From: a virus | Taxonomy: Duplodnaviria > Caudoviricetes | Strand: one strand, 5' to 3' | DNA: 64,000 bases | IMG/VR virus record: IMGVR_UViG_3300014208_000006 | Location: 1,557-65,556 of that record | Shown: in pieces, positions 1 through 56,148 of the stretch | Position numbering within the stretch: position 1 is the first letter of the stretch | Layout: each line of letters opens with the position of its first letter | Notes under the pieces: generated by a model | What the model saw: the letters and a program-made list of their open reading frames with translations, nothing else | The model's database searches: none | Told to the model about the DNA's origin: nothing | Translations under genes and position numbers: made by a program

Positions 1-421
1 CTATCTGCGAATTCAGGGCATCGGCCTTGGCGCTGGCATCGGCGTATAGCTTGCGTGCCTCGTCGGCCCGGCCCTGGGCGAAGAGGGTTTCCCGCTCGGC
101 GGCGGCGGCACGATCCTCGGGCGACACGGCCACGCTGCCGAGCAGCCGCAGGCTGAAGGTGATCTCGGCCTCGATGATGATCTGCTGGGGGGATTTCGGG
201 GCGGCCTTGTTCTGCCGGTCAACGACCTCCATGGAGGCGGCCAGCTTGGAATCGCGCTCCGCTTGCGCCTTCGCGACGGCGGCCGCAGCCTGGGCGGCTT
301 CATCGACGGCAACGACGACCGGGGCCAGCACCGTGGGATTGGCCGGGGGCGTAACGGGCTGCTGCGTCTTGCACGACGCCAAGAGCAGCAAGCAGGCGAG
401 AATGAGGCGCGGGGCTTTCAT
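1..421 (-). CDS. Lipoprotein with coiled coil (spanin-like candidate), truncated by window edge
   Basis: Not in ORF track; read manually from ATG 421: MKAPRLILACLLLLASC (lipobox), then Pro-rich linker and helical A/E/K-rich region; open to position 1; ATGA overlap with upstream gene. Confidence 0.6.
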   Translation of the reverse strand, partial: MKAPRLILACLLLLASCKTQQPVTPPANPTVLAPVVVAVDEAAQAAAAVAKAQAERDSKLAASMEVVDRQNKAAPKSPQQIIIEAEITFSLRLLGSVAVSPEDRAAAAERETLFAQGRADEARKLYADASAKADALNSQI

Positions 422-954
422 GGCTTTACGGGCGCCCATACAAATTGAACGTTCTTGCCAGTGGCGCGTGCCACGTAGTTGTCGGGCGTCACCCAAGGGC
501 GGTCAGCCTTCGGGTTGGTCTCGGGGTTGTCCCCCTGCGCAATCCAGTTGCCGGCCTGCTTGGCAACGAGGCGGTGCAGGGTGAACTTGCCGGTGCCGCG
601 AAGGTAGTCCCAGAACACAACAATATCGCCCTGCTTCAGTTGGTCGAAGGTCACGCCGATTTCGATTTCAGCAAGCCCGGCCTCGGGGAGAGTCGGCAGC
701 ATGGACTTGCCCGTATAGGGAATCCATGCGGCAAGCGTCGGCTTCGGGGTGGTGGTCGGAATCTCCCGCTTGGAGCAACCGAACGCCACGGCCAGAATCA
801 GCACCGCAAGCGCCACGCTGATGACCACGCGGGCGATCAGCTTGTTGTCGCGGTTGAACATCAGCCAGCGGCTTGCGCGCTTCATCCACGGAAAAGCGTC
901 GCGTGGAACGAGCCACCCGAGCACGAATCCGAGGATGAAGGCGGCTGCGGTCAT
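418..954 (-). CDS. S26 family signal peptidase I-like protease (Ser-His, SipW/Sec11 type)
   Basis: GKSMLPTL (catalytic Ser box), LKQGDIVVF, LHRLV (His general base), QGDN..D; N-terminal hydrophobic segments; start taken at MTAAAF. Confidence 0.75.
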   Translation of the reverse strand: MTAAAFILGFVLGWLVPRDAFPWMKRASRWLMFNRDNKLIARVVISVALAVLILAVAFGCSKREIPTTTPKPTLAAWIPYTGKSMLPTLPEAGLAEIEIGVTFDQLKQGDIVVFWDYLRGTGKFTLHRLVAKQAGNWIAQGDNPETNPKADRPWVTPDNYVARATGKNVQFVWAPVKP

Positions 955-961
955 GGCCTGC

Positions 962-1363
962 TCAGTCGGCCCGCTCGTAGAAGCCATCCAGCTCGAAGAT
1001 GGTAACGAGCGCCAAATCCTCCTCGCTGAGCAGTGGATCACCCACGGCGGTGACGACGTGAAACGGGTTCAGGTGTTCCGTGTCGGAAGGCAGGTAGTAG
1101 GCCGGGGTATTCTCGGCGGTGGCCGCGACGGTCCACTTGCGCGACACATAGGGATGCACGGACTGCTCCATGAGCGTCGTGTTGTGCTCGATGCAGTATT
1201 CCGTTGGCACGGCCTGAGGGTCAGCCGGGTCGGCGTTCTGCATGACCTGGCCCCATGTCCAGCCGTAGCCGCCATCGCAGAGCTTGACGAAAACGCCGAG
1301 GCGCTTTGTGAGGTGAATAAGTTGATCGAGATTGTTGGACTTAAACCATGTGACGTTTGACAT
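962..1363 (-). CDS. Hypothetical protein
   Basis: 133-aa ORF co-oriented in late operon. Confidence 0.6.
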   Translation of the reverse strand: MSNVTWFKSNNLDQLIHLTKRLGVFVKLCDGGYGWTWGQVMQNADPADPQAVPTEYCIEHNTTLMEQSVHPYVSRKWTVAATAENTPAYYLPSDTEHLNPFHVVTAVGDPLLSEEDLALVTIFELDGFYERAD

Positions 1364-1399: not shown

Positions 1400-2770
1400 T
1401 TAAGCGGCCATCGGAATGCGCATCCGGCGCATCATGTCACGGGCCACGCGCTGCTGCGCGATTTCGTCGTGATTTGAAGGGTAGGCGAGGATTTCGGAGA
1501 CGGTGATGTTGGCGTAATTGCTGCCGACTCCACGGGCCCCCAGTGTGATGCCGTTGGGGGCAAGCGTCCCAGCGTTTCCAGTAACAGCAGTCCCGCGATT
1601 GACTCGATTAGAGGACGCCGCGCCGTTGAATACCGTTGAGACAATGCCATTTGTTGCGACGGCCAATCCTGCGTTTTCACCTGTCTGTGAGCCGGCGTAT
1701 ATGCGAAGCGCAGGCGTTGTTGCGCCCTGCCGCAGAATCATGGCGGCATCAGTTCCGCCATCATAGATCGTATCGTCAACTGTCCACGTCACCTGACTCC
1801 CCACAAAGTAAACCGTCACCGGCTGCCCCAGCGCAAACGCCGGGGACTTGGAATAATCGTTCGCCCCGTCGTAAGTGAAGCGTCCCGGACCATTCGCCGT
1901 CGGAGCCGTGTAGACCGACATCTTGGTTGACGTAAACTGCGCGAGGTCACGGGCACCTGCGATGCGTGCGCCGGTATCGCCAGTGGAGTTGATCGTGACG
2001 GTGGCGGCGTTGGCGCTGCGCTCCGTGACCGTGCCGGCCAGCTTGGCGGCTACGGATGGGTCGAAGTCGAAGGCCAGCGTTCCGTCGATGCCGTTGTAAA
2101 TTTGGGCGCGGTAGATGTTGCCATCGCAAAAGTCGCTTGTTCCCGCGAAACTTGCTCCAACGTTAATGGTGGCACTAGAGCTAAAAATACTGGTTGCTGC
2201 GCCCCCGGTTACGGTAGTGCCCAACTGCGTCCAAGTTAGTCCGTCGTCGGATGTATAGAAGTTTACTTCATATACCCCGCCTCCGTTTGAAACATTGAGA
2301 GTGGCCCTAATGGTTTTTCTGCTGTTTGCCGCAAGTCCAACCGCAACGGTGCTATTGCCCGTAATAACGGTGCCTGAAGTTCCAAGTGTGCTCCACCCAA
2401 TAGAAATACCACCAGTGACATTAGAGAACAGTCGGTAGCTTCTTTGGTCGCCCGTGCCAGTGTATTTTCCAACGAAAACCTGCACGCTCCCGCTTGACCA
2501 ATTCTTGAGCGCAACATCGGCCCGCAAATCAATATCCCCGGTAATATCTAATGCCTCCGAATGAGGCGCACTCGCATAATTCCCCGCCACCCCATTCAGG
2601 CACAGCACGTTCACCGCGCTGTTGCCGGATTTGTCGTATTGGAGAATGGCGCGATTGCTTCCGTCAATAGTCGCATCCTCCGGCCTCGCCTCATAGTGCG
2701 CGGCGGGAAAGCGGAAGACGGGCGCCCTCCACTCGCGGCGGCTATAAACGGCGAATTGAGCTGCGTTCAT
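1400..2770 (-). CDS. Tail/receptor-binding protein with LamG/concanavalin-like domains
   Basis: LNGVAGNYASAP, FDFDP, YDGANDY, ITLGARG..SEILAY LamG-type strands; Asp-box SDDGLTW; true start MNAAQF at 2770 (the track's 5' extension overlaps other genes). Confidence 0.7.
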   Translation of the reverse strand: MNAAQFAVYSRREWRAPVFRFPAAHYEARPEDATIDGSNRAILQYDKSGNSAVNVLCLNGVAGNYASAPHSEALDITGDIDLRADVALKNWSSGSVQVFVGKYTGTGDQRSYRLFSNVTGGISIGWSTLGTSGTVITGNSTVAVGLAANSRKTIRATLNVSNGGGVYEVNFYTSDDGLTWTQLGTTVTGGAATSIFSSSATINVGASFAGTSDFCDGNIYRAQIYNGIDGTLAFDFDPSVAAKLAGTVTERSANAATVTINSTGDTGARIAGARDLAQFTSTKMSVYTAPTANGPGRFTYDGANDYSKSPAFALGQPVTVYFVGSQVTWTVDDTIYDGGTDAAMILRQGATTPALRIYAGSQTGENAGLAVATNGIVSTVFNGAASSNRVNRGTAVTGNAGTLAPNGITLGARGVGSNYANITVSEILAYPSNHDEIAQQRVARDMMRRMRIPMAA

Positions 2771-2775
2771 GGCGC

Positions 2776-3483
2776 TTAGGAGGCCGCCGAGAAGTTGAAG
2801 AGCACCTCGATGTCGCCGGCATCGGCCAGGTTGATGCCGTCGGCGAGCAGCACCCAGCCGGCCCAGAGCGAGGTCGTGGCAGCAGACTTGAGCAGGCGGC
2901 CGGCATACGGGATATCGGCCACGGCTTGCGTGCCGGTCGTGATGTAGTCCGCGGCGCTCACATCGATGCGGGCGATAATCTTGGAGCGGTCGGTGCTGAA
3001 CACGGCAGCGGCGTTGTCGGTGAGCGTGGCCACCGCAGGATCGGAGTCGAAGATGTAGATGTAGCCGCTCGGCTTCTGGTTGGAGTTGTCGGTGATGAGC
3101 AGGTTTTCCAGACGGCTCGCACCGCCGGCCACACGCACGGCATTGGCGAGGACGATCTTGCCGCCGAGAGAGTCGCCCGTCGAGTAGTTGGGCGTGGCGC
3201 TGGCGGTGAGGGTGACGCGCACGGGAAGCGAGGCCCCGACGGTCACGACCGCCGCGCCGTCGGATGTCAGGAACGCCGTGATTTTGGCGAGCAGGCGCTT
3301 GACCAGGGCGATGAGCGAGAACGTGCCGGTGTCGGTCGTGGCCGCGGTGTCGGCTTTGGCGCCGATGCCCGCTGAGATTGAACCGGCTGTGCCGCCGAGC
3401 GCCGTCAGAATGTCCTGCCCGGTCTGCTCGTTGATGGGCTCGCGTGAGAGCCGGGTGGTGGTGAGGGAAGAGGGAACGGGCAT
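2776..3483 (-). CDS. Putative virion structural protein
   Basis: 235-aa A/T/G-rich beta-type protein among structural genes. Confidence 0.55.
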   Translation of the reverse strand: MPVPSSLTTTRLSREPINEQTGQDILTALGGTAGSISAGIGAKADTAATTDTGTFSLIALVKRLLAKITAFLTSDGAAVVTVGASLPVRVTLTASATPNYSTGDSLGGKIVLANAVRVAGGASRLENLLITDNSNQKPSGYIYIFDSDPAVATLTDNAAAVFSTDRSKIIARIDVSAADYITTGTQAVADIPYAGRLLKSAATTSLWAGWVLLADGINLADAGDIEVLFNFSAAS

Positions 3484-3505
3484 GGTGAAGTGAGGTTAAG
3501 GGTTG

Positions 3506-3530
3506 GCTCCCGGTTTGCTGTCCCGGGAGC
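3506..3530 (-). terminator. Stem-loop (possible terminator/attenuator)
   Basis: GCTCCCGG-9nt-CCGGGAGC in intergenic gap; weak U tract. Confidence 0.35.
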
Positions 3531-3548
3531 GGAAACCAGCTTTGGCGG

Positions 3549-4709
3549 TTAGGCGGCGGCGCCGGCCTTGGCAGCCATGTCGAACACCGTCCAAGTATCA
3601 GCCGCCGTGCAGACGCAGATGACGCCCTTGCTAGCCGCAATCGCGCAACCGGCATCGGCGACTCCGCCGTTGATCGTGCCACCGGCCGCGGCGAACAGGT
3701 TGCAGGCCGTGCCGGACGTGTTGATGATCTGGATGACCTGCCCGGCAACGCCCGTCAGGAGCTTGACGCCCTTGGTGGCGCCGTCGGAACTGACCAGTGC
3801 GAAGTTGACCGCACCGATAGCCGCGGCACCCGCAACACCGCCACCCGCGCCAGTGGCAGCAACCGGAGTCGCCACGAGGCTCGAGCGTTGCACCCCGGAG
3901 ATGATCGGGCTGGCGAGGGTCTTGTTGGAAAGCGTCTGGGCGAGGGTGATGAACGCATACGTGTCGTTTACGTTCGCGAAGTCGGGGATCGTCAGGGTAG
4001 CCGTGCCGACGGTCTGCGCGGCCATGGATTCGGTCACGAGATAGGCGGAGGCATCGGCCACCGTGCGCTTGAGCCCGCCAGAGGTCTTGCCGAGCACCTG
4101 AACATAGCCGGTATTGGTCTTGCCGGTTGCCGTCGAGACAAACGGGGTGGCAGCATCAGCGGTGACTGATCCGAGTGTCGCGGCGCCATCGGCGTCGAGC
4201 GTGCCGGTGACAGAGGCATTGCCGCCTACCGTCAAGTCGTTCGTCACCGCCAGCGAGTCAGCCGATGCGCCAGGATAGAACGCCTTCCAGCCGATCGCCG
4301 CGCTAATGTAGCGCAGAACCACGCGGCCGTATTCGGTCGAGAGCGTCAGGTCGGACGTGCCGGAGTTGATCTTGAGACCATTGCGTCCCGCCGTGACGTT
4401 GTTGGTGTCCCATGTGCCGGCGGGATCGAAAAGCTCGATTTCATCACCAGCCTCGGCGACGGCCGGGAGCGTGATGGTCAGCGCGCCCGCGGTCGTGTTG
4501 ACGCCGAGGATGTCGCCGGAAACAGCCGTGTAGGCCGCGGCCTTGAGCACGAAACCGCCGTTGTCAGCGACGAGCTCGCCATCGGCATTGAACTTGAGGA
4601 CGCCGTTGACGAGTTTCGGCAAGTAGCGAATGGCGTCGAAACGCCGAATGAGGGTCTTGAGGACGAGGGCGCCCATTGACGATCTCTTGGAGAGTGCGGA
4701 TGTTGACAT
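3549..4709 (-). CDS. Tail fibre/virion appendage protein
   Basis: AYTAVSGDILGVNTTAGALTITLPA..GDEI..D..GTW..NNVT..RNG.KING repeat typical of phage fibre proteins. Confidence 0.6.
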   Translation of the reverse strand: MSTSALSKRSSMGALVLKTLIRRFDAIRYLPKLVNGVLKFNADGELVADNGGFVLKAAAYTAVSGDILGVNTTAGALTITLPAVAEAGDEIELFDPAGTWDTNNVTAGRNGLKINSGTSDLTLSTEYGRVVLRYISAAIGWKAFYPGASADSLAVTNDLTVGGNASVTGTLDADGAATLGSVTADAATPFVSTATGKTNTGYVQVLGKTSGGLKRTVADASAYLVTESMAAQTVGTATLTIPDFANVNDTYAFITLAQTLSNKTLASPIISGVQRSSLVATPVAATGAGGGVAGAAAIGAVNFALVSSDGATKGVKLLTGVAGQVIQIINTSGTACNLFAAAGGTINGGVADAGCAIAASKGVICVCTAADTWTVFDMAAKAGAAA

Positions 4710-22280: not shown

Positions 22281-22579
22281 GGGTGGGCATGGTCTTTCGG
22301 CCAGTGGGCAACTTCGTCGCAACAGATGAACGTGAGTTTCTTACCTTCGGTCTTGGCGACAGACACCACGGACTTGTCGCGTGAGCCCGGTTTCGCCAGG
22401 TCAATGCCAATCAGGTAGGGTTTGTCCTCGTGCGATACCTTGATCACGGCGTCGGTTTTGCCGCGGGCCTTCATTCTCCGCAGCGCGCGTTCCACGATCA
22501 CAATCTGCCATGGCTGCAGCTTCAGCGGCTTGCCCGGGCGGGATGCCACTTTCTCTATGAACTGTGTGAAAGTGCTCAT
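22277..22579 (-). CDS. 100-aa protein made of terminase-like motifs
   Basis: KLQPWQ, ARGKT, YLIGIDLAKPGSRDKS, FICCDEVAHWP. Confidence 0.6.
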   Translation of the reverse strand: MSTFTQFIEKVASRPGKPLKLQPWQIVIVERALRRMKARGKTDAVIKVSHEDKPYLIGIDLAKPGSRDKSVVSVAKTEGKKLTFICCDEVAHWPKDHAHP

Positions 22580-22806
22580 TGCCAGACATGGAGGTTTTGG
22601 CCGTTGAAGCCGCGTTGCCACTCGCGGTAGAACCACCCGGTATTGTCGCCAGGCGTGCTCACAAATATCATGCGCCCGGATCTCTCCGAGTCCGGCAAGC
22701 CCGGGTCAATCGCCACAACGTATTTCGGCGCAGCCTCCGCCTTCACCACGGCAGCCACCGCGGCCGGAGTCACCAGCAAGGCTTTGAAGAATGTCCGGCG
22801 GTTCAT
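22576..22806 (-). CDS. Small Tat-signal protein
   Basis: MNRRTFFK twin-arginine motif, hydrophobic stretch, AEA cleavage-like site. Confidence 0.65.
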   Translation of the reverse strand: MNRRTFFKALLVTPAAVAAVVKAEAAPKYVVAIDPGLPDSERSGRMIFVSTPGDNTGWFYREWQRGFNGQNLHVWQ

Positions 22807-50661: not shown

Positions 50662-50942
50662 TGGGCTGTGCGGGTGAGCGGCGCCGGCAGGAAGTCGGGC
50701 ACCGAAGTTATCTGCACCGACCTCCGGGCCGGATCGAAGTTGAAATGCACGTCGGCCTTCAGGTGAATCTCGGTCCCGCCGGCCTCGATCGCGTAGCCGC
50801 GCAGACGGTAGTATTCCATCGCGACCATTCGGCGGAACTGCTCAACCGCGGCATCGACAAACAATTTCTCCGAGGTTCGGATCTCGTCGGCCAGGCTCTC
50901 CTGAGTCTGACCCTCCTGCGCGGGTGAAGTGGATTTCGACAT
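50655..50942 (-). CDS. Hypothetical protein
   Basis: MSKSTS start. Confidence 0.55.
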   Translation of the reverse strand: MSKSTSPAQEGQTQESLADEIRTSEKLFVDAAVEQFRRMVAMEYYRLRGYAIEAGGTEIHLKADVHFNFDPARRSVQITSVPDFLPAPLTRTAQC

Positions 50943-50999
50943 TCGGCGTTGCCTAAGTTTAGCTATCTTGCGAATTCTGCTTTCCAAGCTAAAAAGCAA

Positions 51000-51033
51000 A
51001 ACCCTCTCGGAAGTTGCGCTTCGCGAGAGGGTT
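51000..51033 (-). terminator. Terminator downstream of attP tRNA fragment
   Basis: AACCCTCTCG-GAAG..CTTC-G-CGAGAGGGTT hairpin followed by a T-rich tail on the minus strand. Confidence 0.7.
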
Positions 51034-51038
51034 AAAAG

Positions 51039-51085
51039 TGGTGCGGGCATAGGGAGTCGAACCCCAAACCTCCAGATTCGTAGTC
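51039..51085 (-). mobile_element. attP core = 3' half of tRNA-Arg(ACG)
   Basis: GACTACGAATCTGGAGGTTTGGGGTTCGACTCCCTATGCCCGCACCA: anticodon loop, T arm and CCA, but no 5' half; 160 bp upstream of integrase. Confidence 0.85.
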
Positions 51086-51244
51086 AGCAAAACTGGCAAC
51101 ACATAGCGCCACACTTAGGAGCGCCACGGGCTATCACCCTAAACGGTGTTCGCTATATAGCGCTATACGCTTTTCGGTTTGCAATGTTCTTGCCTAAGTG
51201 ACGTTTTGAGGATTTGCCTAAGTTTTGCCCAAGGAGACGACGAT

Positions 51245-52519
51245 ATGCACGATGAATCCACCCAGTTCCTGACCCGAAATCTCAGCGTGTCCGTGTGGCG
51301 CGCACCCTTCGCCGACAAGACCGGCGCACAGTGCTGGGGCAATCAGTGGTATTGCCGGAAGATGGTCGCCGGGAAGTCCGTCCGGTTCCCGCTCGGCACC
51401 AATAAGCGCACCGCCGAGAAGCTGGCCGAAGAGATTACCGCGTTCCTGTCGATCCCGACCAACACCCTCGACATGGCGTTGGCGAAATACAACCCGCGCC
51501 GCGCCGCGCGCAACAACCACGTCGCGACGTTCACGGACATTGTGACCACTTACGAGAGCGCGCTGGGCATCATCGGCCGGAAGGGCAAGCCGGTCAGCGC
51601 GTCCAGCTTCAAGGGCTACAAATCGTTTCTGGCGTCCCTGCTCCGCAAGGTGGAGTCCTACCGGACCGGCAAGCCATTCGTGTCCTTCTTCGGAAAGAGC
51701 AACGTCGATTACTCGCCCTGGTTCGATCAGCCGACCGACATCCTTACGACGAAGTTCGCGATGGACTTCAAACTGGCGTCGATCCCGCAGGACGACGATG
51801 CCGACGAGGACGACATCCTGACGGCCAAGATCACCGCGGACACGACACTGCGCAATGCCCGCGCCTTCTTCTCCAAGATGGCTGTGCGCTACTACAAGGA
51901 GGTTGGGCTGAAGCTGCCGGACCTGAGCGGCTTCATGTCCGAGCCGGATTTCGGGGCGAAGCGCTACTTTGAGCTGCTTCCGGCTGAAGTGATCGTTGCC
52001 GTGATGCGCGCCTCGATCGAACTCAGGATTGCCGACGTGGACACCTACCGGGCGTTCCTGCTCTGCATGCACTGCGGGTTCCGCCGGGCCGAGGCAATCG
52101 CGTTCAAGCCCCATTGGCTCCGGCAGGACGACCGGCCCATGATTCACATTGTCGCCGGCGGAGACTTCAAGCCGAAGCACGGGCACAGCCGCAAGATCGT
52201 CATCGAGCAATGGGTGTTCGACCTGCTCAAGGAGCTCGGACCGGTGAAGGACACGGCATCGCTCGACAGGCTGAACGAATGGATGAAGGACTTGATCCCC
52301 GCGGAGTTTGCGGTCAGCAAGGCCGTGCATGAGATGCGCAAGCTCTTCATCAGCTTCAAGGCCAAGACCGAGGGCATCCATGCCGCGGCGAACCAGGCCG
52401 GGCATCGCGACGTGAAGGTGACGACTCAACACTATGCCGATTCGATGATGAGCGAGCGCCTACTTCCGCTCTGGAAGCAGCCGACGGAATCTGCTATCTT
52501 ACAATTCAAAATCGCATGA
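51245..52519 (+). CDS. int: Tyrosine integrase
   Basis: CGFRRAEA (R), KPKHG (K), HEMRK (HxxR), AGH..VTTQHY (H, Y). Confidence 0.9.
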   Translation: MHDESTQFLTRNLSVSVWRAPFADKTGAQCWGNQWYCRKMVAGKSVRFPLGTNKRTAEKLAEEITAFLSIPTNTLDMALAKYNPRRAARNNHVATFTDIVTTYESALGIIGRKGKPVSASSFKGYKSFLASLLRKVESYRTGKPFVSFFGKSNVDYSPWFDQPTDILTTKFAMDFKLASIPQDDDADEDDILTAKITADTTLRNARAFFSKMAVRYYKEVGLKLPDLSGFMSEPDFGAKRYFELLPAEVIVAVMRASIELRIADVDTYRAFLLCMHCGFRRAEAIAFKPHWLRQDDRPMIHIVAGGDFKPKHGHSRKIVIEQWVFDLLKELGPVKDTASLDRLNEWMKDLIPAEFAVSKAVHEMRKLFISFKAKTEGIHAAANQAGHRDVKVTTQHYADSMMSERLLPLWKQPTESAILQFKIA

Positions 52520-52815
52520 ACCGCCGCACATTCATCATCTCCTCGTTCATGTTCGGTCTGCTGCTGGCTGTCGGCGTGAAGCCGAAGCATGTTCCTGAGC
52601 GCCAAAGGCCGGCATCTGTATGGATCAACAACTGCGTATTTTCGTTTGACCGCGGCGCAACATGGACGGACGTGGTGCCGCCGAACGGGACTCCGATTGA
52701 GCGGATATACTCACCGAGAGGAACCTACGTTGAGCAGACCAATCCCATGCACATGCCGTCGCTGCACGCCAAGCTGATCGGGCCGAACCGTGTCGAGTGG
52801 CACGCCTCATTATGA
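52516..52815 (+). CDS. Small Tat-signal protein with Asp-box
   Basis: MNRRTFII, hydrophobic core, SFDRGATW; translationally coupled to int. Confidence 0.65.
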   Translation: MNRRTFIISSFMFGLLLAVGVKPKHVPERQRPASVWINNCVFSFDRGATWTDVVPPNGTPIERIYSPRGTYVEQTNPMHMPSLHAKLIGPNRVEWHASL

Positions 52816-53099
52816 ACCGCCGCACCTTCCTCTCCCGCCTGCTGGTCGGCCTGCTCGCCGCTCCGGTTATCGCCAAGGTTATCAGCGAGCCGAAGCCGGT
52901 GGGGCTATACTTCGATGGCGTGAACGACTATATGCGCTGCAAGCCGTTTAAGCTGGATGGCCAGCAGACGGTGCGCTTCGTTCCCGGCGTCAGCGGCAAC
53001 TACGCCAGCGCGCCGGATTCTGCCATGCTCACCATCACGGGCGACCATGAGTGGTTCTTCGACGGCAAGACGCTGCGCCACATCGCCCGGTCCTGCTGA
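52812..53099 (+). CDS. Small Tat-signal protein with LamG tail-derived motifs
   Basis: MNRRTFLS; FDGVNDY and GVSGNYASAPDS..TITGD. Confidence 0.7.
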   Translation: MNRRTFLSRLLVGLLAAPVIAKVISEPKPVGLYFDGVNDYMRCKPFKLDGQQTVRFVPGVSGNYASAPDSAMLTITGDHEWFFDGKTLRHIARSC

Positions 53100-53122
53100 T
53101 ATTGCGGTGAATAGCCTGGCAT

Positions 53123-53148
53123 AAAAAGGCCCCGACCGTGGCCGGGGC
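53123..53148 (-). terminator. Intrinsic terminator ending the late operon
   Basis: GCCCCG-8nt-CGGGGC followed by TTTTT on the minus strand. Confidence 0.7.
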
Positions 53149-53177
53149 TCGCTCCGCTTGGAGGCGCTTTGCTGCCG

Positions 53178-53432
53178 TTACTCGGTCGGCGTCAGATCGA
53201 CATAGAACTTCTGGCCCGGGACGAATTGCCCGAAGAGGGCAGGATTCGTTATCTCCAGCTTCATGTCGCCTGATGGGGTCCAGCGCGCGAAGGAATTATC
53301 CTCCGATTCGCCGTTCGGGCCGAATGGCTGCTTGCCGCACACGCAGGAGAACTTGACCGTCTCCGAGTAGCGACTTTGAGCCGGATCGTATGGAACGACC
53401 GTCTGAACCTGCATCTTTGCTCTGGTTGTCAT
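53178..53432 (-). CDS. Conserved small phage protein
   Basis: RAKM..EDN.FA.WTPSG..L.ITNP..F.PG..FYVDLTP. Confidence 0.7.
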   Translation of the reverse strand: MTTRAKMQVQTVVPYDPAQSRYSETVKFSCVCGKQPFGPNGESEDNSFARWTPSGDMKLEITNPALFGQFVPGQKFYVDLTPTE

Positions 53433-55452: not shown

Positions 55453-56148
55453 ATGAAAACACTCACGGAAGATGCTCCCGCCATTGCTACACCTGCCATC
55501 GCCCAGGTCAATCCTGACCTGCTTCAACTCACCGACGCCGAGGCCGCGCGCTTCTGGGCGAAGGTGGACAAGAACGGGCCTGTGCCGGCGCATAGACCGG
55601 AACTGGGACCGTGCTGGGTTTGGACGGGCGCAAAGGATAAGGATGGGTATGGCAGTTTTTGGCGGCGCTGCGGTCAGATCCGGGCGCACAGGACATCCTT
55701 CGTCACGTCCTGTGGTCCAATAGATGGCAGTGCGCTTGTCTTGCACCACTGCGACAACCCATCGTGCGTAAACCCCCTTCATCTTTTCCATGGCACGCAT
55801 GCCGATAATATGGCGGACAAGGTCGCGAAGGGGCGATCTCCCACGGGCGACAAGAACGGAAGTAGGACCCACCCCGAGTGTCTTTTGCGCGGGGACGACC
55901 ATCCGTTTCGCAAACGCCCTGAGCTTATTCGGCGCGGCAATGCCCACTGGGCGCGTATTTCACCTGAAAAACATGCAAGAGGCGAACGCCTTTCAAATTC
56001 CATACTAACCGATAACGCCGTTCGGGAGATCAGGCGTCGCTACACTCCGCGCGCGGTAACCCAGCAAATGCTCGCCGATGAGTTTGGTGTCGAACGATCA
56101 CTCATAAGCCTGGTCGTCCTTCGCAAAGCGTGGAAGCATATCGCCTAA
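55453..56148 (+). CDS. HNH homing endonuclease (antisense to late operon)
   Basis: RFWAKVDK..CWVWTGA..GYG..AHR..VLHHCDNPSCVNPLHLF.GT.ADNMAD. Confidence 0.9.
   Translation: MKTLTEDAPAIATPAIAQVNPDLLQLTDAEAARFWAKVDKNGPVPAHRPELGPCWVWTGAKDKDGYGSFWRRCGQIRAHRTSFVTSCGPIDGSALVLHHCDNPSCVNPLHLFHGTHADNMADKVAKGRSPTGDKNGSRTHPECLLRGDDHPFRKRPELIRRGNAHWARISPEKHARGERLSNSILTDNAVREIRRRYTPRAVTQQMLADEFGVERSLISLVVLRKAWKHIA

Follow-up and report, generated by a model that had tools for sequence, protein, structure and literature searches.

The small gene P0002 (orf95) is located at 52812–53099 on the plus strand of the window, the 64,000-nucleotide stretch of phage DNA that was analysed, and is the third member of a gene chain that begins with a tyrosine integrase gene (51245–52519, plus strand; phrog_1 integrase, E 4e-15) and continues with orf99 (P0003; 52516–52815, plus strand). 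The integrase ATG at 51245 is preceded by AAGGAGA, and in the near-identical contig L002 the integrase is called as a 424-aa gene. The integrase stop codon overlaps the orf99 start codon as ATGA, and the same arrangement joins the orf99 stop to the P0002 start, so that int, orf99 and orf95 are chained for coupled translation; the link to the integrase that had been proposed as co-transcription is thus borne out as translational coupling. At a distance of 30 nt past the P0002 stop codon, a GC-rich hairpin with a T-run (53129–53148, minus strand) forms the terminator of the late block that converges from the other strand. Approximately 170 nt upstream of the integrase start, at 51039–51073 on the minus strand, the 3' end of a tRNA can be read from the sequence, with a T-arm (GGGGTTCGACTCCC), an acceptor strand and CCA. 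Neither ARAGORN nor Rfam reports this stretch, as is expected for a fragment, and the Rfam search over 50900–53200 returned nothing real. The stretch is a plausible attP core candidate, and its position just upstream of int would place int-orf99-orf95 at a prophage end once the phage is integrated.

The window corresponds to bases 1557–65556 of the source record, a single contig of 65,556 bp whose first 123 bp recur at its end. This terminal overlap shows the record to be the circular genome, about 65.4 kb long, of a phage from a metagenome, and rules out an integrated prophage; the description of the locus as a prophage end is therefore wrong for the record itself and reasonable for the integrated form only. 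Contigs almost identical to the record, 63 kb and 14 kb long, are present in other assemblies. The phage, which carries a tyrosine integrase, looks temperate, and its capsid protein found no match among cultured phages. Elsewhere in the genome, an HNH endonuclease gene is present at 55453–56148 (plus strand) within the minus-strand structural block, and ARAGORN calls a tRNA-Met at 17694–17768 (minus strand) inside a 3147-aa open reading frame (8989–18432, minus strand); the call may be false, or else this very long reading frame comprises more than one gene.

P0002 is a genuine gene under purifying selection. Its 95-codon frame, without an internal stop and ending in a stop codon, encodes a protein with the N-terminus MNRRTFLSRLLVGLLAAPVIA, and the GC3 of the frame (0.85) is typical of the genes of this genome (0.75–0.85). 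Comparison with its closest homologue, P0004 (87 aa, 73–78% identical), gives a dN/dS of 0.30 and a 9-codon indel that keeps the frame. Synonymous sites are saturated in comparisons with the other family members, among which the signal and the motifs described below persist. The genome-typical codons, the ATGA overlap and the dN/dS value together confirm that the reading frame is real, as previously supposed.

The first 21 residues of the mini-protein (52812–52874, plus strand) have the form of a twin-arginine-type signal peptide. NRRTFLS agrees with the consensus (S/T)-R-R-x-F-L-K and is followed by an h-region, LLVGLLAAPVIA, of 12 uncharged residues (mean Kyte-Doolittle 2.6) and then by Lys22, in keeping with the h- and c-regions of such signals, and V-I-A satisfies the -3/-1 rule. 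Every one of the eight family members starts with M-[NT]-R-R-x-F-[FL], and their signals have uncharged runs of 12–17 residues with a proline near the end and a basic residue after it. A run of this length could not form a stable membrane helix, and the 12 residues of P0002 are at the short end of the range for signal peptides. Among known Tat signals, including uncleaved Rieske/PetC anchors and those of small hitch-hiker subunits, the mini-protein matches in Z-R-R-x-F-[FL], the short h-region of moderate hydrophobicity and the basic residue, but it scores below the curated Tat thresholds of Pfam and NCBIfam: the TAT_signal models of the two collections (PF10518 and TIGR01409) do not match P0002 at E≤1, and the PetC anchor profile gives only a weak match (E 0.056). 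The proposal of a Tat signal is therefore upheld by the motif and its family-wide conservation and not by the profiles, all of which remain below threshold. The protein would be exported via Tat, or possibly Sec, with cleavage after VIA. The cargo known for Tat typically consists of cofactor enzymes or folded domains, whereas here it would be a 74-residue fragment.

Three open reading frames of the genome begin with MNRRTF, the others being orf99 and orf76 (22576–22806, minus strand). The 99-aa product of orf99, for which one homologue is known (72% identical), contains an Asp-box-like sequence, SFDRGATW; its likeness to the Asp-box of the tail protein is not significant, and hhalign of orf99 against the tail family gives a Prob of 0.4%. 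The orf76 product has a persuasive Tat-like signal (RRTFFK...AEA) that scores 20.0 bits with Pfam TAT_signal (E 6.4e-4) against a cut-off of 22.7, and we note that its body contains STPGDNTGWFYREW, whose resemblance to a terminase ATPase motif is weak (E 0.9 to the resident TerL). Neither orf99 nor orf76 could be traced to a resident virion protein as a fragment of it, the best intragenomic tblastn matches beyond the MNRRTF signal having E values of at least 0.07. PADLOC anti-phage profiles do not match P0002, orf99, orf76 or the partner reading frames.

The resident tail gene with which P0002 is to be compared lies at 1400–2770 on the minus strand and encodes a two-domain LamG-fold protein of 456 aa, likely a minor tail or fibre protein. 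The gene starts at MNAAQF; a longer reading frame (1400–3748) was considered as the tail gene and discarded because its upstream portion is non-coding. Sequence profiles of Pfam, NCBIfam and PDB do not match the protein, and its 13 relatives likewise lack a Pfam family. An AlphaFold2 model built with 14 relatives (pLDDT 75.6) has the two-sheet jelly-roll fold of about 180–200 residues, and Foldseek aligns it with the tandem pairs of neurexin LNS2-3 and laminin LG4-5 at E values of 1e-10 to 1e-8 and probability 1.0, in agreement with the earlier note, which had called it a LamG protein. The first domain shares 30–34% identity with actinophage proteins annotated as minor tail or tail fibre proteins, and the protein also matches phrog_5313. 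The fold match and this level of identity support the name LamG-fold minor tail protein, with membership of the LamG group assigned by fold only; a role in receptor binding is putative, drawn from the fold and the annotations of distant homologues.

After the LamG gene follow genes for a 133-aa protein, a 207-aa protein and a 383-aa lipoprotein (window 418–1363 and genome 901–2052, both minus strand). The 207-aa protein has weak matches to S24/S26 peptidases (E 0.0015–0.003).

Both resemblances between the mini-protein and the tail gene that had been quoted are present. The first LamG-start-like motif, FDGVNDY...TVRFV (residues 34–57; 52911–52982, plus strand), is identical to the translation of tail positions 1802–1873 at 11 of 24 residues and 42 of 72 nucleotides. 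The second LamG-start motif, GVSGNYASAPDS...TGDHEWFFD (residues 59–84; 52986–53063, plus strand), covers the first three strands of the domain, and within it the segment GVSGNYASAPDSAMLTITGD is identical to tail positions 2534–2593 at 15 of 20 residues and 33 of 60 nucleotides. The best alignment within the genome is colinear over 53 residues with tail residues 27–79 (tblastn E 1.5e-5; pairwise E 2e-7), and profile-profile comparison (hhalign) of the mini-protein family with the start of the first LamG domain in the two-domain tail family gives a Prob of 96.5% (E 1e-9). By these alignments GVSGNYAS...TGD is the sole significant match to the resident tail protein, the match to the start of its second domain being marginal (tblastn E 0.026; family HMM domain score 1.0 bit).

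The nucleotide sequences behind these matches are unlike one another. The same codon is used at just one of the 15 identical residues in the 2534–2593 match, where about 6.0 are expected from the codon usage of the genome (P approximately 0.004), such that the different codon choices already remarked upon are more marked than would be expected. This mismatch is explained by the composition of the tail gene, whose first LamG domain (codons 61–210) has a GC3 of 0.43–0.57 compared with 0.75–0.85 for the genome. The tail domain, probably a module acquired by recent exchange, is thus compositionally foreign and the mini-gene native. The longest DNA word common to the two genes is 12 nt, out of register, and is within the null expectation (mean 10.6 nt; 18% of random segments share at least 12 nt); there are no shufflon-type repeats and no extended DNA identity with the tail gene beyond it. 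Taken with the codon result, this rules out recent intragenomic copying and makes a reservoir for homologous recombination very unlikely. The suggestion that the mini-gene serves tail-fibre shuffling is accordingly disfavoured. A donor cassette for tail-fibre diversification, used through the adjacent tyrosine recombinase or by homologous exchange, would account for the position of the mini-gene beside a recombinase gene and for the protein motifs common to mini-gene and tail gene, but it is highly improbable given the short shared word and the single shared codon; moreover, other family members have no recombinase neighbour, and the scheme leaves the conserved signal peptide without a function.

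The broader set of LamG-like proteins provides a different context for the order of the two motifs. An exhaustive HMM search recovered 156 proteins at E≤1e-3, most of them 400–2900 aa in length. In the long proteins PGVSGNYAS-PDSAAL-ITGD recurs three to seven times and opens each LamG-like repeat, and the final domain opens with LYFDG-NDY-K; the first motif of the mini-protein is identical at 13–15 of 27 residues to the starts of C-terminal LamG-type domains in other phages. Internal junctions of many of these proteins read WLFGTDDYMEV, then about a dozen residues, then LPGVSGNYAS, and the mini-protein is colinear with them, as with residues 804–857 of P0007 (47% identity over 57 aa, E 2e-12). 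The two segments are therefore reversed with respect to the resident two-domain gene, as had been noticed, but their order is native to the inter-domain junctions of multi-LamG proteins and no stitching is needed to produce it. Phage LamG/concanavalin-A-like tail proteins, among them gp16 of the Curtobacterium phage Teagster, gp25 of the Arthrobacter phage Shoya and the multi-domain metagenomic proteins P0005–P0007, are homologous to mini-protein residues 29–84 but differ from it in having no export signal. These alignments indicate that the body of the mini-protein (about 74 aa, strand-rich) is a homologue of an inter-domain junction together with the first three LamG strands. The mini-protein cannot itself be a LamG domain, since the part that aligns amounts to about 55 of a domain's 180–200 residues.

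When 149 long LamG-like proteins are ranked by BLOSUM score for their likeness to the mini-protein, the resident tail protein comes at rank 112 with the second motif and at rank 53 with the first, and the mini-protein lies near the family consensus. These ranks, the divergent codons and the native motif order elsewhere speak against the view that P0002 was stitched from the phage's own tail gene. As judged from these comparisons, the mini-protein belongs to an old and separate lineage and is not a patchwork recently assembled from the resident tail gene. Co-variation with the cognate tail protein can be followed only in the two genomes that hold both genes, the window and the contig carrying the L008 mini-gene; it is absent in the former and mixed in the latter, where the ranks are 27, 14, 133 and 4 of 149.

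P0002 is one of a family of eight full-length loci (P0002, P0004, P0008, P0009, P0013, P0049, P0050 and the L008 mini-gene) and one partial copy (L009), with members of 80–113 aa. The common core of the family consists of the signal and YF-G--DY-K--FK-DG, and in six of the eight full-length members the GVSGNYAS motif is present as well; P0050 continues instead with what appears to be a LamG closing strand. A scan of IMG/VR for relatives of the mini-protein found one locus, L008, whose 86-aa mini-gene is on a 191-kb contig, and a scan of metagenomes found only the partial copy L009. Cultured phages yielded no relative of the mini-protein by tblastn, nor did reference bacterial genomes, in which a single LamG locus (L010) was found with no mini-gene within 20 kb. 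Pfam, NCBIfam and PHROGs hold no family for the mini-protein, and we found no description of a phage Tat mini-protein or a tail-fragment decoy in the literature; an undescribed small gene family is well supported. Structure prediction is poor: the AlphaFold2 model of P0002 from a seven-row family alignment has a pLDDT of 55, and an ESM Atlas model (confidence 0.42 on a scale of 0 to 1) gives structural matches with TM below 0.5 and no usable features.

The genomic settings of the family vary. Only in this phage is the mini-gene coupled to int, and the other members are not beside recombinases. The mini-gene precedes a helicase gene in L001, the contig of P0004, and a family-25 glycosyltransferase gene at another locus, and in L005 it is the last gene of an early-gene block. 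In L004, L006 and L008, which are related contigs, it closes a two- to three-gene plus-strand cassette amid minus-strand late genes, at 1–2 kb from the LamG tail genes; in L008 and L006 the distance between these genes and the cassette is about 1 kb. Genes syntenic to those for the 133-aa, 207-aa and 383-aa proteins flank this cassette; the window shares the late block (LamG protein, 133-aa protein, S24/S26-like peptidase and 383-aa lipoprotein) but lacks the cassette there. With these variable accessory positions the mini-gene behaves as a moron would that accompanies phages with LamG tails. We also note that the right end of L001 (1150–1492) switches to low-GC repetitive sequence, and that L001 may be a chimeric assembly.

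The family data also bear on the prospect that P0002 is a decaying leftover, in which a piece from the 5' end or from a junction of a multi-LamG gene became fused to a signal-like start and the LamG-like part is idle and merely tolerated. Colinearity of the mature region with internal junctions of long LamG proteins is consistent with such an origin, as are the ragged C-termini and indels in the family alignment, the resemblance of P0050 to a deletion product that joins the first and last strands, and the poor structure prediction. This is nonetheless an unlikely account of a gene with a dN/dS of 0.30 and genome-typical codon usage, whose eight full-length loci retain frame, size class, signal and motifs at identities down to 38%.

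Very probably, then, P0002 is a selected gene with an export-type signal and a LamG-start body that belongs to an old family of its own. The best explanation as a whole, to which we assign a probability of about 0.4, is that its product is an accessory protein with Tat-type export and a role in the envelope. Some 55 residues are too few for a LamG sandwich, yet the LamG-start residues are conserved in the mini-protein as they are in full domains, and the protein thus probably acts via a partner. The most plausible scenario is that the mature piece would bind, in the cell envelope, either an envelope component or, by strand pairing, the LamG-type tail protein of a related phage on its arrival, and that the outcome would be exclusion or envelope modification during expression of the int operon. 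This mechanism of an envelope partner or of exclusion is rather doubtful as a specific proposal; exclusion of related phages would be the most economical guess, and receptor masking or superinfection exclusion is possible.

A more specific version, in which the exported fragment reproduces the region of the cognate LamG protein that contacts the receptor and occupies this receptor from the periplasm or surface, had been put forward in the earlier note. The significant likeness to the start of the resident first LamG domain, the export-type signal and the location of the gene in a lysogeny-side operon would all suit such a mimic. The parts that are shared, however, are structural opening strands common to at least 140 LamG-like proteins and not a variable specificity region; the resident tail protein is among the less similar matches and the L008 ranks are mixed; a periplasmic protein would not meet surface receptors; and a LamG binding face could not be built from so short a fragment. 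A receptor mimic is consequently improbable, and neither the patchwork of the phage's own tail nor cognate receptor mimicry holds up.

Interaction with a LamG domain can be imagined without receptor mimicry. The strands may dock on a LamG domain in the cytoplasm and block assembly of a competitor's tail, or they may carry a LamG protein that lacks a signal through Tat by co-export. Such a partnership, which we regard as quite unlikely, would explain why LamG-start residues are kept in a fragment unable to fold alone and would fit the mini-gene's closeness to LamG tail genes in L004, L006 and L008; in the window, however, about 14 kb separate the mini-gene from the LamG gene, and the two belong to different operons. 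The Tat system is able to export pre-formed complexes, which is also in favour of co-export. Inhibition of tail assembly by prophages does exist, and the Tai genes of prophages and satellites are mobile-element accessory genes that act against the tail proteins of other phages (PMC11364771). Tai is cytoplasmic and without an export signal, and its likeness to the mini-protein is a conceptual analogy only. Similarly unlikely is an exported strand fragment that would act as a Tat hitch-hiking adaptor or envelope decoy docking onto LamG-type tail proteins, or as a binder of their envelope ligand.

The preferred reading, that of an exported accessory protein acting in the envelope, has counterparts among well-known phage proteins. 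Llp of T5, Cor of phi80 and N15, and Sp and Imm of T4 are small, non-essential proteins that are exported or membrane-bound. Their genes lie apart from the virion modules and are expressed early or during lysogeny, and the proteins work in the envelope. The mini-protein would be of the same type, a small accessory envelope protein, but has no sequence similarity to any of them. Llp and Cor are lipoproteins with a lipobox; P0002 has no L-x-x-C, and its first cysteine is residue 43. To our knowledge, none of the four derives from a tail-protein domain.

If the family is functional, it would illustrate how a very small conserved segment of a tail lectin domain, joined to an export signal, is put to further use by phages as an accessory envelope protein. 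It would also be among the few proposed phage-encoded Tat substrates and a compact candidate for a new mechanism of superinfection exclusion or envelope modification. Should the docking or ligand-binding reading be true, related phages would be blocked or lectin domains placed in the envelope, and the family would represent a new class of tail-derived exclusion factor.
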